Source: a phage
Reading direction: 5' to 3' (one strand)
DNA length: 64,000 bases
NCBI GenBank assembly: GCA_018175075.1
Contig: GCA_018175075.1_4100.1
Every line of letters begins with the position of its first letter. The first letter of the stretch is position 1. Shown piece after piece: positions 40,686 through 59,640 of this stretch. A program made the position numbers and the translations under genes. The notes beneath the pieces were generated by a model, which saw only the letters and a program-made list of their open reading frames with translations, was not told the DNA's origin and made no database searches.

Positions 40686-40745
40686 TTGCACCGTACTGAT
40701 AAAAGCGTATAATGTTTTACATCGAGAGCGGGAACACTTCCCGCT
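40686..40745 (+). promoter_or_regulatory. mini-gene promoter + 5'UTR hairpin unit
   Basis: AGTACTTGCAC..TATAATGTTTTACATC + AGCGGGAA-CAC-TTCCCGCT. Confidence 0.6.
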
Positions 40746-40768
40746 ACACTTTAAAAGAGATGAAAACG

Positions 40769-41131
40769 ATGGCGACTCAAATCAATAAAATCATGCTTAA
40801 CCTGGTAAACTTCCGCGATGAGATGAAAGGTCTTCCGGCTGAAACTGTAAAAATTCACATTGCAGCTTATCGGGAACTTATTGCAATGTTGCCGCTTAAG
40901 CGTGAACAATACGCCGCTACTTTGATGCTGGATTCAATGATCCATGTAATGATCTCAAATGATTTAACGATGGTTTATCAGTACATGGGAGAAAATTTCG
41001 CGGTGTGTAGTAAGCCAGTACCAGGGATGGCAACTACTGAGGAATTGCACGGTTTAAATTTAAAGCAAGATGCATGGGATAATATGCCTCGTTTCCTGGT
41101 ATGGGCTGACAGTGGCAAAATTTACAAATAA
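40769..41131 (+). CDS. hypothetical protein
   Basis: 120 aa from MATQINK; the track start 40712 lies inside the -10 box. Confidence 0.6.
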   Translation: MATQINKIMLNLVNFRDEMKGLPAETVKIHIAAYRELIAMLPLKREQYAATLMLDSMIHVMISNDLTMVYQYMGENFAVCSKPVPGMATTEELHGLNLKQDAWDNMPRFLVWADSGKIYK

Positions 41132-41145
41132 GTTTAATAAAGTAC

Positions 41146-41204
41146 TTGCAAACTATGTTTAATGGCGTATAATGTTTTACATCAGGTGGGGAATAGTTCC
41201 CCAC
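41146..41204 (+). promoter_or_regulatory. mini-gene promoter + 5'UTR hairpin unit
   Basis: TTGCAA-N16-TATAATGTTTTACATC + GTGGGGAA-TAG-TTCCCCAC. Confidence 0.6.
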
Positions 41205-41224
41205 TATATAAGAGGATTAAAAAA

Positions 41225-41464
41225 ATGGCTAAATCAAAAATGTTCTTAGGTCACAAAAACAAAACTCATTGGAATGTAAGCCTGTGGATTAATAACGATG
41301 AGGGATTGTATCGGTTGGCCCTGGATTTTATTAACGACAACACTAATCGCAATGATGCGGCCCGTCATATGATGTTATTTTTAGAACAGACTGGACAAGA
41401 TAAAACACCGGACGGATTCAAATATAGCACTACTGCGATCCGTGCGGCGATGGTTGGAATGTAA
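41225..41464 (+). CDS. hypothetical protein (paralog of 43265..43504)
   Basis: MAKSKMFLGHKNKTHWNVSLWINNDEGLY...TPDGFKYSTTAIRAAMVGM. Confidence 0.7.
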   Translation: MAKSKMFLGHKNKTHWNVSLWINNDEGLYRLALDFINDNTNRNDAARHMMLFLEQTGQDKTPDGFKYSTTAIRAAMVGM

Positions 41465-41554
41465 TAGAATAGAATTTATTTAAAGTACTATCGCAAAAAA
41501 TGATAGTACTTTATAATAGTGTTTTATTCATACACCAACGATAAGGGCAACAGC

Positions 41555-41818
41555 ATGAATATTAAGTATTTTGCGACGCGTGAACAAGCTCGGATCGCTG
41601 CACGCCAGGACGGGGCAACGTTTAAAGATATGGGCGTACAATCGGAACGTGGTAAACGTTGGGCCATTGTAAAGCGTAGTACCGCCAGATCATTACAGTA
41701 CTGGTTAGCGGCCTTAAAAAGTCCCGATAGTGTATCGCGTCGAGTGGTAGAAATAAAGCTCGACCGAAAGGGCAACCGCGTGACCGTGTACCGTACTAAA
41801 AAGATTGCAGTACTATAA
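41555..41818 (+). CDS. hypothetical protein (paralog of 54831..55226)
   Basis: MNIKYFATREQARIAARQDGATFKDMG...DRKGNRVTVYRTKK. Confidence 0.65.
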   Translation: MNIKYFATREQARIAARQDGATFKDMGVQSERGKRWAIVKRSTARSLQYWLAALKSPDSVSRRVVEIKLDRKGNRVTVYRTKKIAVL

Positions 41819-41826
41819 AAAAGTAC

Positions 41827-41885
41827 TTGCAAACTCTGTTTAATGGCGTATAATGTTTTACATCGAGAGCGGGAACACTTCCCGC
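41827..41885 (+). promoter_or_regulatory. mini-gene promoter + 5'UTR hairpin unit
   Basis: TTGCAA-N16-TATAATGTTTTACATC + GCGGGAA-CAC-TTCCCGC. Confidence 0.6.
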
Positions 41886-41906
41886 CTATAACCTGGAGTA
41901 ATAAAA

Positions 41907-42137
41907 ATGACTAATATGTATATGACTGAAGTTAAAACCGTAAAAGATACTACCACAAATAAAGTTACTTACTTACAGCGGATCTGTGGTGTATGGCAAC
42001 GTATCAGCAAATCAAAGTACTATAAATTAACATCATATGCAAACCGTTCTGATTCATTCAGTACTGAAATAAAAGGTAATAAAGTACACCAATACGGCAC
42101 TTATTATTATTACAGCCTGGACGCGATTGCAGTATAA
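41907..42137 (+). CDS. hypothetical protein
   Basis: 76 aa; promoter + GCGGGAA/TTCCCGC hairpin + GGAG SD. Confidence 0.65.
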   Translation: MTNMYMTEVKTVKDTTTNKVTYLQRICGVWQRISKSKYYKLTSYANRSDSFSTEIKGNKVHQYGTYYYYSLDAIAV

Positions 42138-42167
42138 GCAGTTTACAAATCTTTACAATTGCCGGTA

Positions 42168-42260
42168 TTGACTTATTTTGTCAGTACTGGCATAATGTAT
42201 TCATTGGCAGATAAGCCGTAGCCCATAGGGTGCGGGAGTGTATCTATAGAAAAATTAGTT
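42168..42260 (+). ncRNA. GGGTGC-core RNA element, copy 3 (with promoter)
   Basis: TTGACT-N17-CATAAT then ..GGCAGAUAAGCC..GCCCAUAGGGUGC. Confidence 0.35.
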
Positions 42261-42340
42261 TAGTATAGTTACAATTGTGCACCCGGTGGGTTAGCTGTTG
42301 TCATGGGGTATATTATGCCAGTACTGGATAGTGCTGTCAA
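42250..42340 (-). ncRNA. GGGTGC-core RNA element, copy 4 (with promoter), convergent with copy 3
   Basis: TTGACA-N17-CATAAT then ..ACCCACCGGGUGCACAAUUGUAACUAU. Confidence 0.35.
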
Positions 42341-42384
42341 TACTTTTTTAATATTCAGTACTGAAAACTATTTTTAAAAAGTAC

Positions 42385-42530
42385 TTGCAAACTATGTTTA
42401 AAGGCGTATAATGTTTTACATCAGGACGGGGAACGAAATAAGTAACTTCCCGTTAAGTAGCCCAGGAGTAAGGCACACGAAAAACTCCCCTGATAAAATA
42501 GTTTGACAATTGTTTTTAAAAGCGTATAAT
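42385..42530 (+). ncRNA. conserved ~80-nt leader RNA L1 between tandem promoters
   Basis: TTGCAA..TATAAT, AUCAGG..ACGGGGAA/UUCCCGU..UAAGUAG..GGAG/CUCC..CCUGAU, then TTGACA-N16-TATAAT. Confidence 0.4.
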
Positions 42531-42562
42531 ACTTACATCAACTACTGAATGAGGGTTACAAA

Positions 42563-43174
42563 ATGAAAACTATCACTACTACTACTTTCGTTATGGATTT
42601 TTCTGAATTGAACGCAGAACAAAAAACGTCAGCTATCGAACTGGTTCGGGAACGTGAAAAAAACTCAAACGACAATTATTTTTCTGAAAGTGAAATTGAA
42701 TACTATAAAGAAACAGTACTACCGGAATATGGCATTAATGACGCTGAAATACAATTCAGTGGCTTTTGGTCCCAGGGTGACGGTGCATCAATCAGTACTG
42801 ACCACGTTGACGCAGTGAAGTTTTTACGCAAGGTAAGAGCATTAACTAAGTATCGCTCAATCCGTCACCTGCTGAATGAAGATGATTTGGCGATGAGTGT
42901 AAAGCGTTCGCACTCCCACTACTCGCATGAGAATACTGTAAGCGGGTACATTGAATCGGCTTACACTGATTTAACCGCAAAACAAGAAACGTTAGTTAAT
43001 GAGCTTGAGGAACTACTCACTGAAACTATTCGTGAATTGTCCCGCAAGTTGTACCGTGATTTAGAGAATGCATATGAGGATCAATTCACCACTGAAAACA
43101 TTACGGCACTGATTGAGGGTAACGAATATCAATTCAATGTTATTGATGGCGTAGTAGAATCAATCGAATATTAA
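42563..43174 (+). CDS. hypothetical acidic protein
   Basis: 203 aa; FSGFWSQGDGASI motif; tandem promoters + conserved leader upstream. Confidence 0.7.
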   Translation: MKTITTTTFVMDFSELNAEQKTSAIELVREREKNSNDNYFSESEIEYYKETVLPEYGINDAEIQFSGFWSQGDGASISTDHVDAVKFLRKVRALTKYRSIRHLLNEDDLAMSVKRSHSHYSHENTVSGYIESAYTDLTAKQETLVNELEELLTETIRELSRKLYRDLENAYEDQFTTENITALIEGNEYQFNVIDGVVESIEY

Positions 43175-43185
43175 TTTAAAAAGTA

Positions 43186-43245
43186 CTTGCAAACTAAGTT
43201 TAAAAGCGTATAATACTTTATATCGAGGCGGGGAATGGTTCCCCG
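43186..43245 (+). promoter_or_regulatory. mini-gene promoter + 5'UTR hairpin unit
   Basis: TTGCAA-N16-TATAAT + GCGGGGAA-TGG-TTCCCCGC. Confidence 0.6.
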
Positions 43246-43264
43246 CTCAAACGAGGATTTAAAA

Positions 43265-43504
43265 ATGGCTAGTACTAAAACTTACAACGGTCACAAAAAC
43301 AAAACTCATTGGAATGTAAGCCTTTGGATTAATAACGGTGAGTCATTGTATCGGCTTGCTCAAAGTTGCATCGCACAAAGTAGAACTAAAGATATTGCTG
43401 CGGAATGTATGTACCGCAGATTAAAAGCCAACGGTACTACTACAACGCCGGACGGCTTTAAGTATAGCACTACTGCGATCCGTGCTGCAATGGTTGGAAT
43501 GTAA
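43265..43504 (+). CDS. hypothetical protein (paralog of 41225..41464)
   Basis: MASTKTYNGHKNKTHWNVSLWINNGESLY... Confidence 0.7.
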   Translation: MASTKTYNGHKNKTHWNVSLWINNGESLYRLAQSCIAQSRTKDIAAECMYRRLKANGTTTTPDGFKYSTTAIRAAMVGM

Positions 43505-43561
43505 TATTCAGTACTGAGATAATGGCGGGGAATGGTTCCCGCCTTTACTGAGGGTTATCTA

Positions 43562-43849
43562 ATGAGTAAAGTAATAAAGTACAATGTGTTAAGTAAATCA
43601 TTGTCTATCAGTGAATGCACCGATGGTTTTTGGATGTACGATGAAACGCGTGGCATGAATTTAGCTATGCGTGCAAAAACTGCTGAGGCGGCGTATATTC
43701 AAGCACTGGAATACTACCAGGAACGTTTAAAGGAAGTAGAAGAAGATTATAAAAGCCTCAAAGCGAAAGTAGATCATTTCGTCGGTCAATTCGTGGAAGA
43801 CAACGACGAGGACGGGCACTACTGCGACCGTTGCGGATCTTACAGTTAA
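43562..43849 (+). CDS. hypothetical protein
   Basis: 95 aa; leader hairpin GGCGGGGAA/TTCCCGCC; GAGGG SD. Confidence 0.65.
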   Translation: MSKVIKYNVLSKSLSISECTDGFWMYDETRGMNLAMRAKTAEAAYIQALEYYQERLKEVEEDYKSLKAKVDHFVGQFVEDNDEDGHYCDRCGSYS

Positions 43850-43866
43850 GTACTAAGGATTATATA

Positions 43867-44079
43867 ATGAGTGATTTAATTGAACGTATCAAAGAGCTTG
43901 AAGAAAAAGAATTGCAGTTGATCGGGTTACGGAATAAAGTATTCCATGATTTAGGTGGCTTTATTAATGCCTGGGATAGTGGCGATCCTGATGCGTTACC
44001 TGCTAACCGCCAGGCGATGATCAATGATGTGCGTGGTGTCTTTGAGTATGTTTTAAAAGTACTAGACACTAAGCAATAA
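43867..44079 (+). CDS. hypothetical protein
   Basis: 70 aa from MSDLIERIKE; AAGGA SD. Confidence 0.6.
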   Translation: MSDLIERIKELEEKELQLIGLRNKVFHDLGGFINAWDSGDPDALPANRQAMINDVRGVFEYVLKVLDTKQ

Positions 44080-44140
44080 AGGCGTATAATACTTTATATT
44101 GGTACTGACAAACATTATAAGCGATTCAGGAGCTTTAATC

Positions 44141-44326
44141 ATGACAACATTATCTGAGGTTATCCGCGTTCAAGCTGCAAAGGCTGGAATGACTGTTATC
44201 AATGTAGGGATCAAGATTGAGATCTCCCCTAACGAGTTGCAAGGGATTCCCGATCCTACTAGCTGGGATCGTGCTGGGCGAATGATGCGTAATGCTTCAT
44301 TACTGGACGGTACAAAATTTAATTAA
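44141..44326 (+). CDS. hypothetical protein
   Basis: 61 aa from MTTLSEV; AGGAG SD. Confidence 0.6.
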   Translation: MTTLSEVIRVQAAKAGMTVINVGIKIEISPNELQGIPDPTSWDRAGRMMRNASLLDGTKFN

Positions 44327-44333
44327 AAAGTAC

Positions 44334-44392
44334 TTGCAATTAGTTTTTAGTACTGTATAATGGTTTACATCAAAGGGAGAAATGGTTCTCCC
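44334..44392 (+). promoter_or_regulatory. mini-gene promoter + 5'UTR hairpin unit
   Basis: TTGCAA-N16-TGTATAAT + GGGAGAA-ATGG-TTCTCCC. Confidence 0.6.
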
Positions 44393-44411
44393 TGGTAATG
44401 AGGAAAATAAA

Positions 44412-44633
44412 ATGGCTAATATCACTACTCTTTCCCAACTGGAAGCACTGGTTAAATCTATGCGGGAACATGCCGACAAAATCGGCGTACAAGATCCAGC
44501 CGTTTGCTTCTGCGACGAAATGAATGATGATACACTGGTAATAGCAGAAGTCCAGGACGTTTCTAACTATTCCTCGCGTTACACTGGCGGCGTAGCAAAT
44601 AAAGGTGACTTCTGTTTATACCTTACAAAATAA
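44412..44633 (+). CDS. hypothetical protein
   Basis: 73 aa from MANITT; promoter+hairpin; terminator follows. Confidence 0.65.
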   Translation: MANITTLSQLEALVKSMREHADKIGVQDPAVCFCDEMNDDTLVIAEVQDVSNYSSRYTGGVANKGDFCLYLTK

Positions 44634-44638
44634 CAACG

Positions 44639-44668
44639 CGGGGAGATAATAACTCCCCGTTACTTTTT
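44639..44668 (+). terminator. intrinsic terminator
   Basis: CGGGGAG-ATAATAA-CTCCCCG + TTACTTTTT. Confidence 0.6.
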
Positions 44669-44768
44669 CAGTACTGAATCATTTAATAGACGGATCTCGG
44701 CACCCGGTGGGTTAGTGACTGTTTCGTCTTGATGTAGTAATTATGCCAGTACTGGATGCACTTGTCAA
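44639..44768 (-). ncRNA. GGGTGC-core small RNA candidate, copy 5 (promoter to hairpin)
   Basis: TTGACA-N17-CATAAT (44763-44740); ..GACGAAACAGUC..ACCCACCGGGUGC..; ends at CGGGGAG/CTCCCCG hairpin. Confidence 0.4.
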
Positions 44769-44876
44769 CAACTATTTTTCAAATACTTTTTATTAAAATA
44801 CTTGCAATTAGTTTTTAAACGCGTATAATGTTTTGCATAGGGGGAGCGGTTCCCCTGGTAACTAAGGAATAATAAA

Positions 44877-45113
44877 ATGCTTGAACAAATCAAATCAACG
44901 TCTGCGAATGTAACGGGAACGGTAGCACACTTTACTAGTGATGAATCGCGGGGCGTTCCCTATTGTGCTGTACATGTAAACACTGAGGGTAACTACTGGT
45001 TTACGGTTTACGGATCATATTCATTTGGACGGCCTGGACATCAAAAAATTCTGGATAAAGTACAGCCAACGGGTAAAAATATCACTGCTGAAATGTTTTA
45101 TAAAAAATCATAA
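44877..45113 (+). CDS. hypothetical protein
   Basis: 78 aa; promoter+hairpin+AAGGA SD. Confidence 0.65.
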   Translation: MLEQIKSTSANVTGTVAHFTSDESRGVPYCAVHVNTEGNYWFTVYGSYSFGRPGHQKILDKVQPTGKNITAEMFYKKS

Positions 45114-45198
45114 AGTACTTGATAATAGTTTTTAGTACTGTATAATATTTTACATCGCAAGGGGGGAGCGGTTCCCCCTGGTAACTAAGGATAATCAA

Positions 45199-45498
45199 AT
45201 GAAAATTGCAATCATCGCCCTGGCTTTATCTGTTTCCTCTTTCGCTGTTAATGCGTCGTTAGATGTAAGTAGTGAAAAATTCATTCAGTGCACTGTAGCG
45301 ATGACCAATGAAAGTACTGGCGAGATTGTTTTAAAGGATTTAGAGATCCAGCCAGAAGCATTTAAAAACGGGCCGTTCCATGAAGAAGACGAAAAAGGTA
45401 GCACGACAATTTATTACGATGCAAGTACTAAACGCGGTTCGGTCACTGTTATGGATACTGAGAAAGTAACGCATTCCGGCGTTATTAATTGCCGTTGA
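45199..45498 (+). CDS. secreted small protein, two-Cys type
   Basis: signal peptide MKIAIIALALSVSSFAVNAS; FIQCTV...GVINCR. Confidence 0.65.
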   Translation: MKIAIIALALSVSSFAVNASLDVSSEKFIQCTVAMTNESTGEIVLKDLEIQPEAFKNGPFHEEDEKGSTTIYYDASTKRGSVTVMDTEKVTHSGVINCR

Positions 45499-45519
45499 TA
45501 GATACTACGGGGTAACATC

Positions 45520-45750
45520 ATGACTAAGCGAATTGTTTTACTTAACGAAAGCAGTACTACACAACTACTTAACGCCGTGCATTATGATATTGAAACGAGC
45601 GTTAATCTTATCAGTACTGTAGTACTGTTGGACACTGGAAAGGTCGCCAATGATAAAGCGATTGCAGGTATATTAACGGATCTTGAGCCTGGTAGCAGTG
45701 CACCAATAACGTTAAATGGTAAAGTGTTTAATATTTTACTCACTGATTAA
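45520..45750 (+). CDS. hypothetical protein
   Basis: 76 aa; followed by strong terminator. Confidence 0.6.
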   Translation: MTKRIVLLNESSTTQLLNAVHYDIETSVNLISTVVLLDTGKVANDKAIAGILTDLEPGSSAPITLNGKVFNILLTD

Positions 45751-45756
45751 GTACAT

Positions 45757-45779
45757 AGCCCACCTGGTGGGCTTTTTTG
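45757..45779 (+). terminator. intrinsic terminator
   Basis: AGCCCAC-CTG-GTGGGCT + T6. Confidence 0.7.
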
Positions 45780-45867
45780 TTTTTGTAGTATCGTAGTACT
45801 GAGATACTTTGAAAATAGTTTTAAAAAAATAGTTGACATTACCGCAAAAAGGCGTAGAATATATTAC

Positions 45868-45940
45868 ATCAAGACGGGGAGCACTAAGTAGACCGCCAGT
45901 AAGTCGAACGAAAAACTGGACACGTCGAGAAAACTTTGAT
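45868..45940 (+). ncRNA. leader RNA L3 (diverged copy)
   Basis: AUCAA-GACG..UAAGUAG..CCAGU-loop-ACUGG..CGUC..UUGAU nested pairs after TTGACA-N16-TAGAAT. Confidence 0.35.
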
Positions 45941-45983
45941 ACACTAATAAACGTAAACTAAACTTTAATTGAGGATTTATAAA

Positions 45984-46466
45984 ATGGCTAATGTAAAATC
46001 ATTCATCAAAGCACTGGTAGCAAATGAAACTAACGTCGCGGCTGAGATCCTGGCTGAACTGGATAACGATACCATGAAAGCGGTACGCAATAATTTTAAC
46101 ATCGCTTACAGTACTGCGAAAGAACTACAAGCAAATAAAGCGGCAGAAATTGAAGCGGCAAAGGCGGCCCGTGAAGCAGAACTACAAGCAACAATTGAAA
46201 GTATTCAGGCGGCAGTAGTTGGATTGGATCTGGAAGTAGTTACAGAGATGGCACAAAAAGCCCTGGCGAAAAAGTACGGTGAAGATAAGCCAGAAGTAAA
46301 AGCTAAAAAATGGATTCAAGAACGTGTAGCGGTAGTACTTGATAACGGGGAAGAATATCTGATTCCGGTGCGTGGTAACTGCATTGCGGTAGTACTGGAT
46401 GCGATTAACTCCAGTGGTATGACTCGCGAGGAATGGATCGAAGCTCATCGCAAAGTTGAAGCATAA
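45984..46466 (+). CDS. hypothetical Ala/Glu-rich helical protein
   Basis: 160 aa from MANVKSF; GAGGA SD; ~110-nt structured leader. Confidence 0.65.
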   Translation: MANVKSFIKALVANETNVAAEILAELDNDTMKAVRNNFNIAYSTAKELQANKAAEIEAAKAAREAELQATIESIQAAVVGLDLEVVTEMAQKALAKKYGEDKPEVKAKKWIQERVAVVLDNGEEYLIPVRGNCIAVVLDAINSSGMTREEWIEAHRKVEA

Positions 46467-46487
46467 CAATTAAAGTACTGAATCATT

Positions 46488-46514
46488 AGCCCACTTATAC
46501 AGTGGGCTTTTTTG
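46488..46514 (+). terminator. intrinsic terminator
   Basis: AGCCCACT-TATAC-AGTGGGCT + T6. Confidence 0.7.
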
Positions 46515-46750
46515 TGTTTATCGTTTACCAGGCCACCAGCACCGCCTAGAAACGATTCTAACGTATTAAACTGTTTATCTGATGCATTGCCCTAGCTGGT
46601 GGCGTTAAAGTCGTTAGAATGCGATTGAGTGCGTTTAAAGTATTTTGCAAAAAGTAATAAAAAGTACTTGCACGATTAAGAGATTAGCGTATAATGTTTT
46701 ACATCGAGAGGGGGAAACGGTTCTCCTTCCAAATCAAAGGAATCAAAACA

Positions 46751-46978
46751 ATGGCTATTATCATTACTCGCGTATCTGGTACTACTGGCAACGAACAAGT
46801 AGTTGCAGTCATTACCAACAAGGAAGGTGCGGAATTGCAAAATGCAATGAATACCTGGGCCGTTAATGAGTTCGGTCAGTGGGCAAGTGTAGCATACATT
46901 GAAACCTATCAAGTGCCGTCGATTAGTTTAACTGATTTGGGCGTTGAGCGTATCCTTTGCCTTGATGAATTAAATTAA
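46751..46978 (+). CDS. hypothetical protein
   Basis: 75 aa from MAIIITRV; track start is a -10 box artefact. Confidence 0.65.
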   Translation: MAIIITRVSGTTGNEQVVAVITNKEGAELQNAMNTWAVNEFGQWASVAYIETYQVPSISLTDLGVERILCLDELN

Positions 46979-47064
46979 AAAAGTACTTGCAAAGTAAATC
47001 GAATAAAGTATAATACATTACATCAAGGGGAGAAAATGGTTCTCCCCACTACAAGGAAACTAAA

Positions 47065-47208
47065 ATGAAAACTTGTCAATGTGGTCAGAAATCTATTACT
47101 GGTTTAAAGCGGGGCGTTGCTCTTTGCCAGTACCATTATAATTTACAAGTATGGGGTAAAGAATGGGCCGACCAGGTGGAAGCAGCAAAGAAAGCAAAAA
47201 GTAAGTAA
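47065..47208 (+). CDS. 47-aa Cys-rich small protein
   Basis: below track cutoff; promoter+hairpin+AAGGA SD; MKTCQCGQ...ALCQYH. Confidence 0.5.
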   Translation: MKTCQCGQKSITGLKRGVALCQYHYNLQVWGKEWADQVEAAKKAKSK

Positions 47209-47268
47209 AAATATTATCACAGTACTATTGACATAGTTTGATAGTACTGGCATAATAGATTTTATCAA
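47207..47268 (+). repeat. type-2 ~60-bp promoter repeat
   Basis: AAAATATTATCACAGTACTATTGACATAGTTTGATAGTACTGGCATAAT..; TTGACA-N17-CATAAT. Confidence 0.6.
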
Positions 47269-47287
47269 AACAACTGAGGAAAATAAA

Positions 47288-52761: not shown

Positions 52762-52844
52762 AAACTATTGACAAGATAATCTAGTACTGTATAATAAGTT
52801 ACATGAAGGGGAGAAATGATTCTCCCCACTGAGAGGAAAGAAAA

Positions 52845-53057: not shown

Positions 53058-53143
53058 AAAGTACTTGCACAGTACTGAATAAAGTGTATAATGTTTTATA
53101 TCGGAAGGGGAATAGTTCCCCTCCCAACAAAGAGGAAAGTATA

Positions 53144-53317
53144 ATGATCCAAGTAGAATTATCAGTACTGAAAGATCTGTTTTATCGGTTAGGTACTAAT
53201 GGCGAGTATCCTAAAAGTGATACCGCAAAACTTTTTGTATCACTCGACTTATGGCAACGCGAACAATTAGTAATGTCCTGGCGTAAAGGTAAAGCAGATC
53301 GCGAGGTGAAAGCATGA
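53144..53317 (+). CDS. hypothetical protein
   Basis: 57 aa from MIQVELSVL; promoter+hairpin. Confidence 0.55.
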   Translation: MIQVELSVLKDLFYRLGTNGEYPKSDTAKLFVSLDLWQREQLVMSWRKGKADREVKA

Positions 53318-53463
53318 AAGAATTCTTATTCGAAGTAGTGTTTCAAGGTGTCGGTAGTAACCAACTGATTCGATCAAGTGGTTACAATGTCAACCAGGCA
53401 TGGAATAACATTAAACAAATGTACCCGAACGCTATCACCTATCGCAACCCGAAAGAAGTTTAA
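53314..53463 (+). CDS. 49-aa small protein
   Basis: ATGA coupling; MKEFLFEVVFQGVGSNQ... Confidence 0.45.
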   Translation: MKEFLFEVVFQGVGSNQLIRSSGYNVNQAWNNIKQMYPNAITYRNPKEV

Positions 53464-53477
53464 AAATAATTGAAAAA

Positions 53478-53560
53478 GGGATTGACTCCGGTCAGTCCCT
53501 TTGCTATTATATACGCATAGAAACAAATCAGCCCACCGGGTGCATAAATGTATCTATTGT
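53478..53560 (+). promoter_or_regulatory. fused terminator-promoter hairpin + GGGTGC-core element, copy 8
   Basis: GGGATTGAC-TCCG-GTCAGTCCC; TTGACT-N17-TATTAT; ..GCCCACCGGGUGC.. Confidence 0.55.
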
Positions 53561-53600
53561 TTGCTGGTGGCTAGTACTGAAAACTATTTTAAAAAAGTAC

Positions 53601-53744
53601 TTGCATTGTACTTAGAATAAAGTATAATGTTTTACATCAGGACGGGGAACGAAACAAGTAACCCCGTTAAGTAGTCCAGGAGTAAGACATACGAAAAACT
53701 CCCCTGATAAAATAGTTTGACAATAGAAAGTAAACGAGTATAAT
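53601..53744 (+). ncRNA. conserved ~80-nt leader RNA L2 between tandem promoters
   Basis: near-copy of L1 with ACGGGG/CCCCGU stem variant; downstream gene unrelated to that of L1. Confidence 0.4.
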
Positions 53745-53777
53745 ACTCACATCAACCACTGATAAGGAAACATAAAA

Positions 53778-54053
53778 ATGCGGATTCTACTGACAGCTAA
53801 CGAAATCGAACAAGTACTGACTACTAACCTGGAAGACTGGAAACGTGAAGCAGATATCCAGGCGGTTCAACAGCTTAACGATGAGTTAACGCCGGATGAC
53901 TTAAGCAAGATTGTAGATCCTCAATTCTACGAAGATATCCACGACACCGCGTTAAGCGTCGAGGATGTACTAGATAAGCACTACATTGATATTGATTTGC
54001 AGGTTTACGGTCGTAAAAACTTTATCACTATTCACGACATTTACAATAATTAA
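53778..54053 (+). CDS. hypothetical acidic protein
   Basis: 91 aa; tandem promoters + conserved leader upstream. Confidence 0.65.
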   Translation: MRILLTANEIEQVLTTNLEDWKREADIQAVQQLNDELTPDDLSKIVDPQFYEDIHDTALSVEDVLDKHYIDIDLQVYGRKNFITIHDIYNN

Positions 54054-54056
54054 GTA

Positions 54057-54118
54057 TTGACAAAGTATCTTAGTACTGTATAATAGTTTACATCGAGTGA
54101 GGGGAAACGGTTCCCCTC
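54057..54118 (+). promoter_or_regulatory. mini-gene promoter + 5'UTR hairpin unit
   Basis: TTGACA-N16-TGTATAAT + GAGGGGAA-ACGG-TTCCCCTC; near-identical copy at 54328-54390. Confidence 0.6.
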
Positions 54119-54141
54119 CTAACAAAGAGAGAGAAATAAAA

Positions 54142-54324
54142 ATGGCTAAGTGCACTATCTGCAAGAAAGAAATAGTATTAGTTCCAAGTGCCCGTGAACG
54201 TGCCGCTCGGTTCGGTGGCAAAGCGTCAGACTATACAAAAATGTTTACTACCCATGCAGCTTGCCAGGTAGCAAAACGTTCACAAGAAAGCGTAGAATTA
54301 ATGCGTAAACTTTCCAAAAAATAA
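54142..54324 (+). CDS. small Cys-containing protein (possible Zn ribbon)
   Basis: MAKCTICKKEIVLVP...THAACQV; promoter+hairpin. Confidence 0.6.
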   Translation: MAKCTICKKEIVLVPSARERAARFGGKASDYTKMFTTHAACQVAKRSQESVELMRKLSKK

Positions 54325-54411
54325 GTATTGACAAAGTATCTTAGTACTGTATAATAGTTTACATCAAGTGAGGGGAATGGTTCCCCTCCTAACTAAAAGA
54401 GAGAAATAAAA

Positions 54412-54735
54412 ATGGCTATGATCCTTGCCCAGAAAGTAGAATTGAAAATTGTAACCTCATTTGACATTAACGTTAATCGGTGGACTGATTCACACGGCAA
54501 TACTTACCACTCTTGCTACGTGTCTGCGTTAATTGGCGACCGCTGGGAAGACCTGGGACATGAAACCTTTACATACGGTTACGGCACACAAGGCGAATAC
54601 ACGGGCTTGGAGATCATTAAAGAAACCGTTATAGGTTTCAACCCGAAAGAAAAAGTTATTCACCAAATCGAAAAAGAGATTAACAAAGAAATAACAGTTC
54701 GATACAACGATGTAAAACGTAAGAAAGACATGTAA
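54412..54735 (+). CDS. hypothetical protein (paralog of 47590..47913)
   Basis: NRWTDSHGNTYHSCYVS...FTYGYGTQ...VKRKKDM. Confidence 0.7.
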   Translation: MAMILAQKVELKIVTSFDINVNRWTDSHGNTYHSCYVSALIGDRWEDLGHETFTYGYGTQGEYTGLEIIKETVIGFNPKEKVIHQIEKEINKEITVRYNDVKRKKDM

Positions 54736-54830
54736 TAGAATCCATTTAAAGTACTATTTGACATTGCCCAGATAGTACTTTATAATAGACTCTAACTTGT
54801 AGTACTAACTTAACTAATAGGATGTATACC

Positions 54831-55226
54831 ATGATTACTAAATTCTACGCTACCCGTGAAGCTGCCCGTATTGTTGCACGCGAGGAAGGAGCAGCATTTA
54901 AAGACATGGGCAAAGATGCACCGAAAGGCCAACGCTGGGCCGTACAGTTCAAAGAGATCTCTGATATTGTGAATTCACCTGAGCCAGTACTAACAGCAGC
55001 AGAACTAAAACGAGCGGATATGCTGGCGGCAATACTTGACGCACAAGATGAGTTTATCGCTGGTTCTGATATCAAAGTACAGGTAAACCACACCGCATGG
55101 ACTCACGCGGATCACCTGGCAAACCTTAAGCGTCCAAGTGAACTGATTCGCAACCAGAAAGAGATCCGACATGATCGTAAGGGTAATCGTGTAACAGTAT
55201 ACAGTAAACGCCGCCAGGTTATCTAA
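54831..55226 (+). CDS. hypothetical protein (paralog of 41555..41818)
   Basis: MITKFYATREAARIVAREEGAAFKDMG...DRKGNRVTVYSKRR. Confidence 0.65.
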   Translation: MITKFYATREAARIVAREEGAAFKDMGKDAPKGQRWAVQFKEISDIVNSPEPVLTAAELKRADMLAAILDAQDEFIAGSDIKVQVNHTAWTHADHLANLKRPSELIRNQKEIRHDRKGNRVTVYSKRRQVI

Positions 55227-55248
55227 TAACTTGCAGTACTAACAACAC

Positions 55249-55273
55249 GGCGGGATCAGTTCCCGCCTTTTTT
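55249..55273 (+). terminator. intrinsic terminator
   Basis: GGCGGGA-TCAG-TTCCCGCC + T6. Confidence 0.7.
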
Positions 55274-55287
55274 ATAGGACAAACAAA

Positions 55288-55542
55288 ATGATTAAGGTTC
55301 AACTATATAAAGATAACATCTTACGGGTACACTATAAAGCACCTCAGAGAATCATCACAAAGGCCGTACAGCTTGCTAATGAGTTTATTAATGGTAACCT
55401 ATTACCTAGGAAGTTAAGCAACGGGAAACTGCGTGTAATCGACGTGGACACTAACAACAGGATAGTAATCGAGAACACAGGAAAGATAAACCTTTATGAG
55501 CATCAACAATACAATAAGAAAATAAAACTAATATCACGTTGA
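55288..55542 (+). CDS. hypothetical protein
   Basis: 84 aa; follows terminator at 55249. Confidence 0.6.
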   Translation: MIKVQLYKDNILRVHYKAPQRIITKAVQLANEFINGNLLPRKLSNGKLRVIDVDTNNRIVIENTGKINLYEHQQYNKKIKLISR

Positions 55543-55595
55543 CAGTACTCAAATGTTTTAGTACTATGTACACATACCAACACGGGAGAAACAAA

Positions 55596-55814
55596 ATGAA
55601 ATTATCTAAAATCGAAAAGAAAACTATTGATGAAGCAGTTAAGCACGGTTATACCTTTCGTAATGATTCACATTTTACCAATTTTCAACAAGGGTATCGT
55701 ACTATTAAAAAACTAATTGACAAAGGTTTATTAGTTGAAGTCAATAACGGTAACGGTATCGAGTATCAACCAACACAAGACGCATTTTATTTTAAGAAAT
55801 ATAATATTATCTAA
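55596..55814 (+). CDS. hypothetical protein
   Basis: 72 aa from MKLSKIEKK; TTGACA-N17-TACTAT promoter at 55540. Confidence 0.6.
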   Translation: MKLSKIEKKTIDEAVKHGYTFRNDSHFTNFQQGYRTIKKLIDKGLLVEVNNGNGIEYQPTQDAFYFKKYNII

Positions 55815-55872
55815 TTGACAGTACTCAAATGTTTTAGTACTATATGTACATACCAACACGGGGAGAAACAAA

Positions 55873-56115
55873 ATGATTACTTTAGAAAAACGTATCAAAG
55901 AAACTACATCGCTGGTGGAACTGTTAACAGTACTGAAATGTAAAACAACACCATTCAGCACGCCGGACTTTATTAATATGGTTGATGTTAATGGTCGCTA
56001 TCGTATCACGGTCGTGAATGGTGCGGCGAAAGTATTCAGTACTAAAAACACTAAGGAAGTGATCCACGCCGTTAATGTTAAAAAAGTAGTTGCCATTGAT
56101 AGTAAAGTACTGTAA
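55873..56115 (+). CDS. hypothetical protein
   Basis: 80 aa; near-identical copy of the 55540 promoter upstream. Confidence 0.6.
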   Translation: MITLEKRIKETTSLVELLTVLKCKTTPFSTPDFINMVDVNGRYRITVVNGAAKVFSTKNTKEVIHAVNVKKVVAIDSKVL

Positions 56116-56146
56116 GATAGTTTCATTAACTCAAGGAGTAAATGCA

Positions 56147-56731
56147 ATGCGTAATTATACTAAATTCATCCGTACACTGTCAGAAATGGAAACCAACAAA
56201 GAGATCCTTTCAGCTTGTCGGTTAGCTGGCCTGGAGATCATCGGGGCGGGATCTTCCCGTATAGTTTTCGCTTTAAATGATCGGTTAGTGATTAAGGTCG
56301 CGAATTGTGATGCGGGTGTAGAACAAAATGAAACTGAATGTAAGGTATGGAATTTTTTAGACTATGACCGCCCTCAGTTGAAACAGTACTTTGCAAAGGT
56401 GCATATGCATTTATGCGATCCTGATAATATGTTTATCGTTATGGATCGGTTGAGTACTGCAAGCAAAGGCAGTGTGAAGCACGTTAACGCGTGCAATGAA
56501 TTAAAGTACAATATTAAACGTAATGCAATCGAACGCCAGCACCGCTTTGCTGATGCACTACAACACGTTGATGATACATTATCAACACTAACGATAAGAG
56601 ATATCAGAAAACAGAATATCGGCCAGGATCGTAATGGACTTATTAAAGTACTTGATTACGGTTTAACCCGCAATATCTGGAATCAGTACTATAAAAAGCG
56701 TGATGTAGCAGCAAGTAAGGTAACACGATAA
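56147..56731 (+). CDS. protein-kinase-like protein (mini-kinase 3)
   Basis: IIGAGSSRIVF...LVIKVA; RDIRKQNIGQDRNGLIKVLDYG; AAGGAG SD. Confidence 0.55.
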   Translation: MRNYTKFIRTLSEMETNKEILSACRLAGLEIIGAGSSRIVFALNDRLVIKVANCDAGVEQNETECKVWNFLDYDRPQLKQYFAKVHMHLCDPDNMFIVMDRLSTASKGSVKHVNACNELKYNIKRNAIERQHRFADALQHVDDTLSTLTIRDIRKQNIGQDRNGLIKVLDYGLTRNIWNQYYKKRDVAASKVTR

Positions 56732-56745
56732 AAAAGATTAAAAAA

Positions 56746-56832
56746 GGGATTGACTCCGGTCAGTCCCTTTGCTATTATATATTCATTGAGAGATAACTCA
56801 CTGACCCATAGGGTGCATAAGTGTATCTATTA
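56746..56832 (+). promoter_or_regulatory. fused terminator-promoter hairpin + GGGTGC-core element, copy 9
   Basis: same hairpin; TTGACT-N17-TATTAT; ..UGAGAGAUAACUCA..ACCCAUAGGGUGC. Confidence 0.55.
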
Positions 56833-56953
56833 TATAAGTATTCAGTACTGGAAACTATTTTTAAAAAGTACTTGCATTGTACTTAGAATCAAGTATAATG
56901 TTTTATATCGAGAGGGGGAAATGGTTCTCCCTGGTACATTAAGGAATAAAATC

Positions 56954-57175
56954 ATGACTACAATGACTTGCATTCACGCTTCAAACCTGCTTAATGATGC
57001 GGCCTTTAATGTTGATTCAGAATATCAATGTTATCGGGATGAAAATAAAAAAGTTTTTGTAGTTGATAATAATGGTTTCCATATTGAATTACAATCCGGC
57101 TTCACTGGTGTTGATGGTAAATCAGTATGGGGCGTACAGGATGATAAAGGTACATATCATTTTAAACGTAATTAA
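56954..57175 (+). CDS. hypothetical protein
   Basis: 73 aa from MTTMTCIH; the long track ORF runs through the regulatory module. Confidence 0.6.
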   Translation: MTTMTCIHASNLLNDAAFNVDSEYQCYRDENKKVFVVDNNGFHIELQSGFTGVDGKSVWGVQDDKGTYHFKRN

Positions 57176-57261
57176 GTATTGACAAAGTATATCAGTACTG
57201 TATAATAGTTTACATCAAGGGGAGAATAGTTCTCCCCACACCAATAAAAGGAAACAAAATT

Positions 57262-57534
57262 ATGTCCAGCTACTCCGCTACTATGATCATTAAAGATATG
57301 AACGGTAATCCTACTTCTGCTGGTGGATCATTTGGAAACATTAATTTAGATGGTCGGTTATCCATGCAATCAGCCATTGATGCAGCTAAAGAAGTTTTTA
57401 AGAATGAATGTACTGTAAGCAAGCTGGATTATATGGGATTCGCTATCGAGAAAACTAATCGTTTTGTGAACTACAAAAAGCCTATGATGATTGATACTAA
57501 CCTGAAAGCTAACGAAGTGGAATACTTATTATGA
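57262..57534 (+). CDS. hypothetical protein
   Basis: 90 aa; promoter+hairpin. Confidence 0.65.
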   Translation: MSSYSATMIIKDMNGNPTSAGGSFGNINLDGRLSMQSAIDAAKEVFKNECTVSKLDYMGFAIEKTNRFVNYKKPMMIDTNLKANEVEYLL

Positions 57535-57722
57535 CAGTAGAAGAAGTTAAAAAAGTACTGGCAGTACTACGCTATCATAATCATTGTAAGGTGAAGAATG
57601 ATCCTGATTATCTTGATTCATCCCTGGAGGAAGACACCTTAAACGCGATAAGCTATATGCAAACATTAGCAAAGCGTATGACCGAAAAGAATAGGCCGGA
57701 CTATATAGGAAATAAAATTTAA
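57531..57722 (+). CDS. hypothetical protein
   Basis: 63 aa; ATGA coupling. Confidence 0.6.
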   Translation: MTVEEVKKVLAVLRYHNHCKVKNDPDYLDSSLEEDTLNAISYMQTLAKRMTEKNRPDYIGNKI

Positions 57723-57809
57723 AAAGTACTTGCATTGTAGTTAGATTAACGTATAATGTTTTATATCGAGAGGGGGAAATGGTTTCCCCTCAAGTCCAGG
57801 AGATACACC

Positions 57810-58073
57810 ATGAACACTATCGAAATCACTATCAATGCACACGTATACGACAACGTAGTACTGCAAACTACTATGACCGCTAATGATACCAGTACTTTGC
57901 GGAATACTGTTATTAGTGCCGTATGTGCTGCAATCGGTGATGTCGCCCTGGAAAATGCAAAACACGTAAACGATGGTTTCACTATGTGCAAACGTGATAA
58001 CGCAAAACATATCATCGTGGAAGGTTACGGCGGTGTAGAATTTAATGTTTATATGAAAAAAGTACTTGCATAA
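57810..58073 (+). CDS. hypothetical protein
   Basis: 87 aa from MNTIEITI; 3' end (KKVLA*) overlaps the next -35. Confidence 0.65.
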   Translation: MNTIEITINAHVYDNVVLQTTMTANDTSTLRNTVISAVCAAIGDVALENAKHVNDGFTMCKRDNAKHIIVEGYGGVEFNVYMKKVLA

Positions 58074-58140
58074 TAACTAAAACAAAGTATAATGTTTTGC
58101 ATAGGGGGAGATATCCTCCCCCACTAAAAGGAGTAATAAA

Positions 58141-58365
58141 ATGGCTAACTTTGATGAACTGATGCGGGAAGTAGCTACCCTGGCAGAAGAGAAGAAATCA
58201 TTCGATTCTATCTATAACACCGCTCACCGTGATTCAGTACTGGCATGTACTCAGGATCAAAAAGATGAACTAATCGCCACCTATCATGAAGCATGGAAGT
58301 ACTACCGCCAATGGGAGAAAGAAGAAAGCGAGTCTACCATCAACGGCATCAATAATCTAATCTAA
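58141..58365 (+). CDS. hypothetical protein
   Basis: 74 aa; promoter+GGGGGAG/CTCCCCC hairpin. Confidence 0.65.
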   Translation: MANFDELMREVATLAEEKKSFDSIYNTAHRDSVLACTQDQKDELIATYHEAWKYYRQWEKEESESTINGINNLI

Positions 58366-58371
58366 AAGTTT

Positions 58372-58425
58372 TATTTCAGTACTATTGACATAGCTTGATA
58401 GTACTGATGTAATAACTTTACTAAC
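58372..58425 (+). repeat. type-2 promoter repeat (variant)
   Basis: ..TCAGTACTATTGACATAGCTTGATAGTACTGATGTAAT. Confidence 0.55.
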
Positions 58426-58441
58426 TACAAGGGGAAACATC

Positions 58442-58699
58442 ATGGAACAATTCACACAATATCGGGTAAATCCTCAAGCTATGGCCTACGTAGAAGACCA
58501 TAAAACGTTACCAGTACTGCAACCAGTTAAAGGCCATATCTATCGTGGCCTTGCCTGGGATACGGCCCAGGATGGATATAAAACCGTCGCAGTGGGGATG
58601 TATTGCGGGAATGGTGAATGGTTTGATCCTAACAATCCGATTGCACTTGACAGTACTGAAAAAATGAAATGGGCCGACTACATCGAAGATATTTCATAA
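58442..58699 (+). CDS. hypothetical protein
   Basis: 85 aa; type-2 promoter repeat upstream. Confidence 0.6.
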   Translation: MEQFTQYRVNPQAMAYVEDHKTLPVLQPVKGHIYRGLAWDTAQDGYKTVAVGMYCGNGEWFDPNNPIALDSTEKMKWADYIEDIS

Positions 58700-58789
58700 A
58701 AACTATTTGACAGTACTAACCAGTAATGTATAATGTTTTACATAGAGCGGGGGAATAGTTCTCCCGCCAATAGTTTGGAGTAAAACATT

Positions 58790-58990
58790 ATGTCTATCGC
58801 TATCGCCCTGGTTGAAGTACTGAAAGAAGCTAAAGCCAACCTTATCGATGTACAGATTAAGGAATTGCAAAACGGCTTAATCGGCTGTACTTGTACCGCT
58901 GGCGGTGCGGCAGACTATCGAGAACACGAATCACTCGAATCACTGGTTCGGTATCTTACCATGATCGTTGATGATTGGAGAATCATCTAA
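58790..58990 (+). CDS. hypothetical protein
   Basis: 66 aa; promoter+hairpin. Confidence 0.6.
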   Translation: MSIAIALVEVLKEAKANLIDVQIKELQNGLIGCTCTAGGAADYREHESLESLVRYLTMIVDDWRII

Positions 58991-59009
58991 CAAAAAAAGA
59001 ATAAAAAAA

Positions 59010-59090
59010 GGGATTGACTCCGGTCAGTCCCTTTGCTATTATATACGCATAGACAAAAACTAGCCCACAGGGTGCATAAGTGTATCCAAA
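59010..59090 (+). promoter_or_regulatory. fused terminator-promoter hairpin + GGGTGC-core element, copy 10
   Basis: same hairpin; TTGACT-N17-TATTAT; ..UAGACAAAAACUA..GCCCACAGGGUGC. Confidence 0.55.
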
Positions 59091-59238
59091 ATATATAGTT
59101 AATAACGGTGAGTAACTATCTGCTGGTGGAGTGAAAACTATTAATAAAAAAAAGTATTGACAAAGTATATCAGTACTGCAATAATGTATCTCGTAGGGCG
59201 GCAATGGTGCGACGGCCCACAAAGTTAGGAGATTCAAA

Positions 59239-59571
59239 ATGACTACTTCAATCGCTATCGTTAAAGCTTTCATCCGTACTAATGTTTCCTCTGTATTCAT
59301 CGACGGCCTCGACCGTAACGTAGAATACTCAATCATTATCGCACAAACGGCAAACGGTTCTCGGTACATCCTGAATGATAGTGAAGCAAATCACTACTAC
59401 TTCACTAAAGCCACTGGCTTTAAACGCATCGATGCTGATGTAGTATACGCTAAGATGAATAAGCTGGTAGACAAGATTAACGCGAAAGGTACTATCGATT
59501 TACAGTACTGGACCGAAACCGATCCAGAATATGGATCTCACCGCTACCTGAATCCAGGTATTAAAATGTAA
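59239..59571 (+). CDS. hypothetical protein
   Basis: 110 aa; TTGACA promoter at 59158; AGGAG SD. Confidence 0.65.
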   Translation: MTTSIAIVKAFIRTNVSSVFIDGLDRNVEYSIIIAQTANGSRYILNDSEANHYYFTKATGFKRIDADVVYAKMNKLVDKINAKGTIDLQYWTETDPEYGSHRYLNPGIKM

Positions 59572-59578
59572 AAAGTAC

Positions 59579-59640
59579 TTGCATAGTACTTAGAATCAAG
59601 TATAATGTTTTACATAGAGAGGGGGAAATGGTTCTCCCTC
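59579..59640 (+). promoter_or_regulatory. mini-gene promoter + 5'UTR hairpin unit
   Basis: TTGCAT-N16-TATAATGTTTTACAT + GAGGGGGAA-ATGG-TTCTCCCTC. Confidence 0.6.

Follow-up and report, generated by a model that had tools for sequence, protein, structure and literature searches.

Promoter cassettes with a conserved leader hairpin in the terminal repeat of an Asteriusvirus jumbo coliphage

The DNA considered here is a stretch of 64,000 nucleotides of a phage genome (GenBank assembly GCA_018175075.1, contig GCA_018175075.1_4100.1), referred to below at its full length as the window, and the element in question is a small promoter cassette with a hairpin in its predicted leader, of which about 25 copies lie within 19 kb. 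Positions 40,000-60,000 share 94-97% identity with Asteriusvirus genomes (the PBECO4/121Q/G17 group of jumbo coliphages, 350-385 kb), which identifies the source, as far as sequence similarity goes, as an Asteriusvirus of the PBECO4/121Q type. Base 1 of the related phage fEgEco12 aligns at window position 39,039 and its base 20,993 at about 60,492; both the termini of fEgEco12 and its direct terminal repeat (DTR) of 20,993 bp were confirmed by restriction mapping (PMC13070987), and comparable repeats of about 20-22 kb are found in phages Sharanji and CBB. The array of cassettes therefore spans almost exactly the DTR, which is assumed, on the model of other phages with early genes in their terminal repeats, to be the part of the genome that enters the cell first. 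Past about 60.5 kb the genes are tightly packed, with overlapping stops and starts, and have no cassettes. Most products of the cassette genes lack a Pfam match: a GNAT acetyltransferase, a DksA/TraR zinc finger and a weak kinase match are the DTR products with a family assignment, and the remainder are orphans. An IMG/VR search with the DTR kinase as query returned phage 121Q itself and nothing else. No tRNA was found in the window, and a search of Rfam 15 gave no match at the gathering threshold and nothing relevant at E<=1, with just three chance-level matches in the DTR below threshold, none of them at a cassette.

Each cassette consists of an AT-rich or AGTACT-bearing upstream element, a near-consensus sigma70 promoter for the host RNA polymerase, an initial sequence AUCGAG or AUCAAG, a GC-rich hairpin of 7-9 bp, an A/U-rich spacer, a Shine-Dalgarno (SD) sequence and the start codon of a small, mostly orphan gene. 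Written out for 24 units, the plan is AAAGTAC-TTGCAA/TTGACA, N16, TATAAT, GTTTTACAT, hairpin, SD, ATG. A preliminary description of this DNA, made from the letters alone, had proposed that 25 gene starts in the array, and one at 13959 in the left arm, share such a module, and a promoter-plus-hairpin scan bore this out, placing the described hairpin before 25 of the 25 starts and before 13959. A full sigma70-type promoter with an N16 spacer is present in 24 units; the unit at 43524 has a degenerate promoter (that of its G17 orthologue is intact), and one unit lies outside the repeat (13906). The TTGCAA/TTGACA-N16-TATAAT promoters have AAAAAGTAC upstream, 11 of them matching 12 of 12 consensus positions, and the motif TATAATGTTTTACAT, with two mismatches or fewer, occurs 26 times, exclusively on the + strand, against 1.4 expected. 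It had also been remarked that some promoters are written inside the last codons of the preceding gene, and this is correct: the -35 element overlaps the final codons of genes ending in ...SNSTCN* and ...KKVLA*.

The hairpins have stems of 7-9 bp, loops of 3-5 nt and predicted free energies (dG) of -9 to -15 kcal/mol; the G-rich arm comes first, and the window set contains 13 G.T pairs. Their placement varies little, with 12.1 +/- 1.3 nt (range 8-14 nt across 24 hairpins) between the -10 element and the hairpin and 19.5 +/- 2.7 nt between the hairpin and the ATG. The lone outlier, at 11 nt, is the gene given a start at 52216. The gene after the hairpin at 52186 probably begins at the in-frame ATG 52222, which agrees with the fEgEco12 annotation and has an SD spacing of 8 nt rather than 2 nt, and the outlier then vanishes, because this start restores the usual distance. 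As an unbiased measure of enrichment, a strong hairpin is found at 21 of 34 DTR promoters, compared with a mean of 0.155 for shuffled leaders, and in 1.1% of random DTR windows. A covariance model, which the preliminary description had named as a check, was run with filters off over all 64 kb; its + strand matches with E<0.01 were confined to the stretch from 43.5 to 59.7 kb, the mirror matches on the minus strand scoring far lower. About a third of the early promoters are hairpin-less and have a leader of about 33 nt with identical flanks (TATAAT-ACTTACATCAA-...-SD-ATG), so the hairpin looks like an insert of about 20 nt near +6. The presence or absence of the hairpin is stable per gene: among 52 orthologue groups represented in at least two phages, 33 always have it, 16 never do and 3 are mixed.

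Because an invariant CAT lies 7-9 nt after the -10 element, and because the mapped start of the phage T7 A1 promoter (annotated at 498) is the eighth nucleotide after its own -10, we place +1 at the A of CAT, again the eighth nucleotide. The hairpin would then occupy RNA positions of about +6 to +27 in every transcript from its own promoter, behind a free 5′ tail of about 5 nt (range 3-7), which is probably half the roughly 10 nt first suggested, and it would be present as well in RNA reading through from the upstream unit. The T7 A1 RNA begins AUCGAGAGGG, ten bases identical to those of many cassettes (ATCGAGAGGGGG...), and has a predicted 5′-proximal GGGA...UCCC hairpin (-15.9 kcal/mol, z -3.9). 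The same can be observed from the cassette side: the first ten transcribed bases predicted for the unit at window 56900-56925 and for similar units, ATCGAGAGGG, are those of the A1 early RNA, with the same spacing from the -10, and a G-arm/C-arm 5′ hairpin follows in T7 (stretch 99-140), as in the cassettes. The shared start could reflect convergence on a favourable initial transcribed sequence or a common ancestry of phage early promoters.

The arms of the hairpin differ between copies and stay complementary, from which it had been argued that structure is selected, and that argument is supported. In a strand-symmetric hairpin search that accepted G.T and A.C pairs equally, 64 distinct hairpins from nine phage loci contained 28 G.T and 4 A.C pairs (p=2e-5). 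A single transition would turn either kind into a Watson-Crick pair, so the bias indicates that it is on the sense strand that the structure counts, in the simplest case as RNA. When 25 distinct loop-3 hairpins, drawn from four genera, are aligned without gaps and without model fitting, two-sided change is seen at 8 of 9 pairs, and the covariation score is 0.511, compared with 0.206 +/- 0.026 for shuffles (0 of 500 reaching it) and 0.20 or less for slid partners; the sequences were chosen by a hairpin finder, so the percentage of paired cells in this alignment is inflated. A model-fitted hairpin alignment agrees on covariation; main reliance is placed on the ungapped set because the covariance-model alignment contains minus-strand mirror matches and is model-fitted. 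MAFFT alignments, both of whole leaders and of variable-loop hairpins, were out of pairing register and were replaced by equal-length subsets and the covariance-model alignment.

The hairpins are also active at the level of DNA. Many differences between close relatives arise where one cassette has taken over the entire hairpin of another; in G17, for example, the orthologue of the 57752 unit has a hairpin of the 58729 type. In two orthologue pairs only the loop is reverse-complemented, cac/gtg between window 40735-40737 and the PBECO4 stretch at about 10095, and tag/cta between window 57227-57229 and the fEgEco12 stretch at about 17731. Such loop inversions are flips of the whole palindrome, by DNA-level inversion or template switching at stem-loops. 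The covariation is therefore in part recombinational; it still shows that broken stems are kept in no lineage and that the loop is not recognised by its sequence.

The comparison that we regard as the strongest evidence for a selected structure crosses genera. The Klebsiella phage K64-1 (Alcyoneusvirus) matches the window in its promoter, in the offset of the hairpin from the -10 (10-14 nt) and in the distance to the ATG, with the stems GGGAATGAA/TTCATTCCC, AGGGGTACA/TGTATCCCT and AGAGATTCCA/TGGAATCTCT. The Klebsiella phage fENko-Kae01 and the Salmonella phage Munch share the architecture (GGGGGAA-acatc-TTCCCCC). The position of the hairpin is fixed across at least three phage genera despite differing stems, and the plan is conserved in at least Asteriusvirus, the Munch-like group and Alcyoneusvirus. 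Around the kinase homologue of the Yersinia phage fHe-Yen9-04, tRNA genes were found and no such cassettes.

Gene content changes at the same places. When the window is compared with fEgEco12, G17 and PBECO4, the cassettes, which make up 17% of the DTR, contain 12 of the 26 distinct synteny breakpoints (p=5e-4), although most intergenic space consists of cassettes and any gene-wise indel will tend to break there; of the remaining breakpoints, most coincide with other promoters, degenerate ones among them. In fEgEco12 an extra gene is flanked by two copies of the 57179 cassette, and orthologous genes carry hairpins swapped in from other cassettes. The Escherichia phage A7_1, a 145-kb member of the Vequintavirinae, has three cassettes of identical architecture at 12028, 12345 and 16402, one of which is followed by a homologue of the gene at 47065 in the window and therefore points to transfer between phage families. 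Where genes have been gained, lost or replaced, the boundaries are marked by cassettes.

The reading that we favour, and that we hold to be about as probable as all others together, is that the hairpin has a generic structural role as RNA inside an expression cassette that is mobile, serving the cassette's own mRNA and read-through RNA, the cassette itself being a recombination linker. It would be a sequence-independent RNA structure, the loop sequence being irrelevant, and it would benefit the cassette's own mRNA in that no long single-stranded 5′ untranslated region (UTR) would separate the 5′ end from the SD region that the ribosome covers. RNA reading through would be punctuated by it, for the unit upstream, either as a barrier to 3′ exonucleases or as a weak attenuator, and the whole cassette of about 90 bp would supply the homology for shuffling, duplicating and exporting orphan genes to other phages. 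Several points weigh against this. The transcription start and the early timing of the cassettes are inferred; the G.T asymmetry would also fit a hairpin in single-stranded + strand DNA; and part of the covariation comes from whole-hairpin swaps, and possibly from palindrome-correcting template switching, and not from stepwise compensation. The third of early cassettes that are hairpin-less imply that the hairpin is not required for early expression. Stabilisation of the mRNA 5′ end, one of the roles first put forward, is weakened in its classic form, given that about 5 nt would be unpaired at the 5′ end, which does not make a classic 5′-terminal protector, and that RNase E has little difficulty in getting past stem-loops that are orthogonal to its path (PMC9943677).

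Nor does the hairpin offer a predicted gain in SD accessibility, and the same calculation deals with the proposal that the 5′ arm is an anti-anti-SD, stopping the C-rich 3′ arm from masking the SD and so forming a translational switch. The mean predicted accessibility of the translation-initiation region is 0.73 for the wild type and 0.61 when the 5′ arm is replaced (Wilcoxon p=4e-5), the 3′ arm then pairing with the SD in many leaders. It is 0.72 when the whole hairpin is deleted, as in the wild type, so no translational gain is predicted and the proposal holds in a trivial sense only. The alternative pairings (-1 to -10 kcal/mol) compete with a native fold of -10 to -19 kcal/mol that is ahead by 5-13, the arms are transcribed back to back and leave no kinetic window, nothing is evident that would open a stem of -10 to -15 kcal/mol, and the same SDs function in hairpin-less cassettes. 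We consider a switch highly improbable. Of the preliminary description, then, the inference on structure is correct, while its suggestions on mechanism find for the most part no support.

A stem-loop of this kind might instead stop or thin transcription, insulating small genes and throttling very strong promoters, as was originally proposed for the promoter-early stem-loop (PeSL) cassettes of other phages. When a PeSL stem-loop from phage RB49 without an obvious U-tract was placed in a transcriptional fusion, it cut downstream lacZ as much as rrnB T1 did (Arbiol et al. 2010, PMC2839356), a result that also counts against the generic structural element, because attenuation may then be the main activity. 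A stem of 7-9 bp with a loop of 3-5 is typical of terminator hairpins, and ARNOLD called one G17 leader hairpin a terminator, the others there being unannotated. Against this, none of 24 leader hairpins has a T-tract in a terminator scan that found eight ordinary + strand terminators with T-tracts in the same 20 kb. The hairpin always lies downstream of its own promoter, where efficient termination would abort the cassette's own mRNA and so defeat the cassette; in RB49 it lies inside or upstream of the promoter. Hairpins are, moreover, retained in cassettes just after real terminators (8 of 16, compared with 104 of 156 elsewhere, p=0.27, from a terminator finder that missed sites and promoter calls of which some are spurious). 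Attenuation as the principal role thus seems to us unlikely, while deserving to be taken seriously. Rather less credible is a common recognition tag, in which a phage-encoded or virion-delivered protein binds or cuts the hairpin and controls the tagged immediate-early mRNAs jointly, with a logic like that of RegB or RegA in T4. One structure is indeed common to two thirds of the early mRNAs and kept per gene across genera, and its polarity is constant in Asteriusvirus, G-rich arm first. The loops, however, vary freely in length and sequence and flip between orthologues (as in the two pairs above), which makes the loop-specific form of the RNA-binding-protein site first suggested improbable; the K64-1 stems are wholly different, leaving only shape to be read; and no candidate protein was found among the DTR proteins, whose matches are limited to the three families already named. 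A more speculative version, to which we give little credence, makes the hairpin a shape-only "self" tag on the immediate-early mRNAs of Rak2-like jumbo phages, read by an injected or very early factor or by the polymerase. If it were true, tagged transcripts would be selectively spared, boosted or later destroyed during the elimination of host mRNA, and the third of early genes that carry no tag would be a class under regulation of its own.

It could finally be argued that the palindrome matters as DNA only, as a hotspot for recombination or template switching or as a selfish element carried along with the cassette, and that its RNA form has no role. The concentration of breakpoints in cassettes fits, as do the whole-hairpin swaps and loop inversions, which show the palindromes to be active as DNA, and Arbiol et al. 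speculated on a DNA-binding recombination protein (PMC2839356). This reading does not lead one to expect the excess of G.T over A.C pairs, a strand asymmetry foreign to a double-stranded or cruciform signal, or a position relative to the -10 and the ATG that is fixed across genera despite different stems, and breakpoints fall at hairpin-less cassettes too; we think it very unlikely. Other candidates were set aside on simpler grounds: a canonical intrinsic terminator is ruled out by the missing T-tract, an RNase III site by stems that are too short, an N4-type promoter hairpin by the full sigma70 promoter with the hairpin downstream of it, a put-like antitermination RNA by the wrong size and shape, an operator for a dimeric DNA-binding protein by arms that change together and strand-biased wobble pairs, and a G-quadruplex by the presence of single G runs only.

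Table 1. Coordinates of the cassettes and of the repeat that carries them
Feature	Window coordinates	Strand	Details
Direct terminal repeat (DTR) carrying the cassette array	39039..60492	+	alignment to fEgEco12 ends
Cassette 1	40686..40771	+	-35 40686, -10 40708, hairpin 40727-40745 (AGCGGGAA cac TTCCCGCT), ATG 40769
Cassette 2	41146..41227	+	-10 41168, hairpin 41185-41205, ATG 41225
Cassette 3	41827..41909	+	-10 41849, hairpin 41869-41885, ATG 41907
Cassette 4	43187..43267	+	-10 43209, hairpin 43227-43247, ATG 43265
Decayed cassette	43494..43564	+	degenerate promoter TTGGAA-18-GATAAT, hairpin 43524-43543, ATG 43562
Cassette 5	44334..44414	+	-10 44356, hairpin 44374-44393, ATG 44412
Cassette 6	44802..44879	+	-10 44824, hairpin 44838-44857, ATG 44877
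Cassette 7	45119..45201	+	-10 45141, hairpin 45160-45179, ATG 45199
Cassette 8	46668..46753	+	-10 46690, hairpin 46708-46729 (two G.U pairs), ATG 46751
Cassette 9	46987..47067	+	-10 47009, hairpin 47027-47047, ATG 47065; gene and cassette also in Vequintavirinae phage A7_1
Cassette 10	48793..48874	+	-35 over upstream gene's STCN*, hairpin 48833-48852, ATG 48872
Cassette 11	49022..49102	+	-10 49044, hairpin 49062-49081, ATG 49100
Cassette 12	49609..49690	+	-10 49631, hairpin 49650-49668, ATG 49688
Cassette 13	50043..50125	+	-10 50065, hairpin 50083-50102, ATG 50123
Cassette 14	52147..52224	+	TTGCAT-17-TATAGT, hairpin 52186-52204, start probably ATG 52222 rather than 52216
Cassette 15	52768..52847	+	-10 52790, hairpin 52808-52827, ATG 52845
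Cassette 16	53065..53146	+	-10 53087, hairpin 53106-53122, ATG 53144
Cassette 17	54057..54144	+	-10 54079, hairpin 54099-54118, ATG 54142
Cassette 18	54328..54414	+	-10 54350, hairpin 54370-54388, ATG 54412
Cassette 19	56872..56956	+	-10 56894, hairpin 56913-56932, ATG 56954
Cassette 20	57179..57264	+	-10 57201, hairpin 57219-57237, ATG 57262; duplicated around extra gene in fEgEco12
Cassette 21	57730..57812	+	-10 57752, hairpin 57770-57791, ATG 57810
Cassette 22	58066..58143	+	-35 over upstream gene's KKVLA*, hairpin 58104-58122, ATG 58141
Cassette 23	58707..58792	+	-10 58729, hairpin 58747-58767, ATG 58790
Cassette 24	59579..59663	+	-10 59601, hairpin 59619-59640, ATG 59661
Outlying cassette outside the DTR	13884..13961	+	TTGACA-16-TATAAT, hairpin 13921-13941 (GGGGATGA acttc TCATCCCT, K64-1-like), ATG 13959
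Hairpin-less early cassette (comparator)	42503..42565	+	leader about 33 nt
Further hairpin-less cassettes	44085, 50639, 51752, 53739, 54781		positions of -10 elements

The window contains further elements besides the cassettes. The palindrome AGTACT occurs 283 times in the 64 kb, against about 21 copies expected from composition, and the sequence CAGTACTG has 64 copies, compared with about one in shuffles. The palindrome is present in coding and non-coding DNA alike (for example at 39378, 40102, 42182 and 57193), with only two copies in 60-64 kb; in the cassettes it has two fixed places, over the upstream edge of the -35 (AAGTACTTGCAA, 18 promoters) and just before the -10 (AGTACTGTATAAT, 10 promoters). 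It could be a protein binding site or be linked to DNA modification or restriction. The first 1.6 kb or so of the DTR (39039-40700) has no convincing open reading frame (ORF) and is filled with short repeats (GGATGGCT/ACGGCTA arrays, TTTTGGGCGTA, CAGTACTG). A promoter of the cassette type, spanning 39404-39431 from its -35 to its -10, faces into this stretch and has no gene behind it.

At 42385-42502 and 53601-53716, and in a weaker copy at 45833-45935, a cassette-type promoter is followed by an ORF-less segment of about 75 nt and then by a hairpin-less promoter and its gene. In these segments AUCAGG at the predicted start pairs with a 3′ CCUGAU (dG about -20 kcal/mol; z -1.9 and -3.4), and they may be small RNAs or structured leaders; in PA5oct, a distant relative, two non-coding RNAs are expressed at a high level from the terminal repeat (PMC7318152). 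Promoters of a second class, TTGACA-N17-TGGCATAAT, lie at 42168, 47228, 47520, 50355 and 51140 on the + strand and at 44768 and 42340 on the minus strand. Several of these promoters, two on the minus strand among them, run into ORF-less stretches containing a repeated (A)ACCCAnnGGGTGC element (copies at 40128, 40343, 42279 and 44700, and on the minus strand at 49553, 53543 and 59075), and the unit of the minus-strand promoter at 44768, which ends at a bidirectional terminator (44660-44638), looks like a small-RNA gene of about 110 nt. A conserved terminator, AAAGGGATTGAC-TCCG-GTCAGTCCCTTT followed by GCTATTATAT, lies at 49480-49515, 53475-53510, 56743-56778 and 59007-59042, and also at 7459, 8223, 11151 and 16067; its stem includes a -35-like TTGACT, and an extended -10 (TGcTATTAT) follows at a distance of 17 nt. 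Such a composite of terminator and promoter has the classic PeSL geometry, with the stem-loop over the promoter, and coexists with the leader-hairpin type.

These cassettes organise the expression of the first 50 or so genes, almost all of unknown function, in widespread giant coliphages that are under development for therapy. To view them as PeSL-type units explains why near-identical phages differ so strongly in the gene content of their terminal repeats, and it provides a rule for annotating starts and promoters there, as with 52222 in place of 52216. It also widens the range of phages in which modular cassette shuffling is seen, from T4-like phages to jumbo phages of the Rak2-like group and, in another family, to a member of the Vequintavirinae. 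A stem-loop in the transcribed leader, kept in position across genera with unrelated stems, points to an RNA-level role outside the PeSL model of terminator and recombination linker. As a matter of practical use, the cassette is a compact, very strong and naturally insulated expression part.

Several known systems resemble the array in part. The pre-early region of T5 and the host-takeover module of SPO1 likewise place many small genes in a long DTR, with strong host-type promoters and ribosome sites. These arrays are assumed to be the first DNA expressed, and we know of no conserved leader hairpin described for their terminal-repeat units. The stem-loop stabilisers of the Escherichia coli ompA and papA mRNAs (Emory, Bouvet and Belasco 1992, as cited in PMC3997798) are, like the cassette hairpin, stable and near the 5′ end, upstream of the ribosome binding site. 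They differ in base-pairing the 5′ terminus itself, which in the cassettes is predicted to be free by the short tail inferred above. A few extra unpaired 5′ nucleotides abolish protection by stabilisers of the ompA type. A further parallel is T7 A1, an early promoter for the host polymerase at the genome end that enters first, with the same start spacing and a 5′-proximal G-arm/C-arm hairpin; that hairpin is longer and interrupted, and it is not a repeated cassette directly before an SD. T7 A1 is a single promoter with a long leader and RNase III processing far downstream.

In the literature on promoters, transcriptomes and leader hairpins of Asteriusvirus and RaK2-like phages we found no description of these cassettes, the CBB paper reporting only RpoD-like promoters with an UP element. 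The nearest relatives are the PeSL cassettes known from RB49/phi1, PST/T4 and nt-1/KVP40 (Arbiol et al. 2010, PMC2839356; Comeau et al. 2014, PMC4122927), which combine a consensus sigma70 promoter, AT-rich upstream, with a G(n)-loop-C(n) stem-loop containing G-T pairs, an SD and an ATG, occur in about 50 copies before orphan genes in hyperplastic regions, and have been proposed to terminate or attenuate upstream transcription and to serve as recombination linkers for modular shuffling and mini-circles. The likeness covers the AT-rich upstream region, the near-consensus promoter, the G-arm/C-arm stem-loop with G-T pairs, the SD and the ATG, as well as the dozens of copies before small orphan genes in a plastic region and the junctions of indels and replacements between close relatives that fall at cassettes. 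The sole defining PeSL feature that is missing is the placement of the stem-loop. In the RB49 sequence, on inspection, the stem-loops lie between the -35 and -10 elements or across the -10, as in TTGAC[AGGGGATCggtGATCCCCT]ATAAT, and in PST upstream of the promoter, so that they are absent from the cassette's own transcript, whereas here the stem-loop is always downstream of the -10, inside the 5′ UTR; the array, moreover, fills the DTR of a Rak2-like jumbo phage and not internal hyperplastic regions. Overall, the cassettes are best described, on present sequence comparisons, as mobile early-expression units of the PeSL kind in which the stem-loop appears to have been shifted into the transcribed leader.

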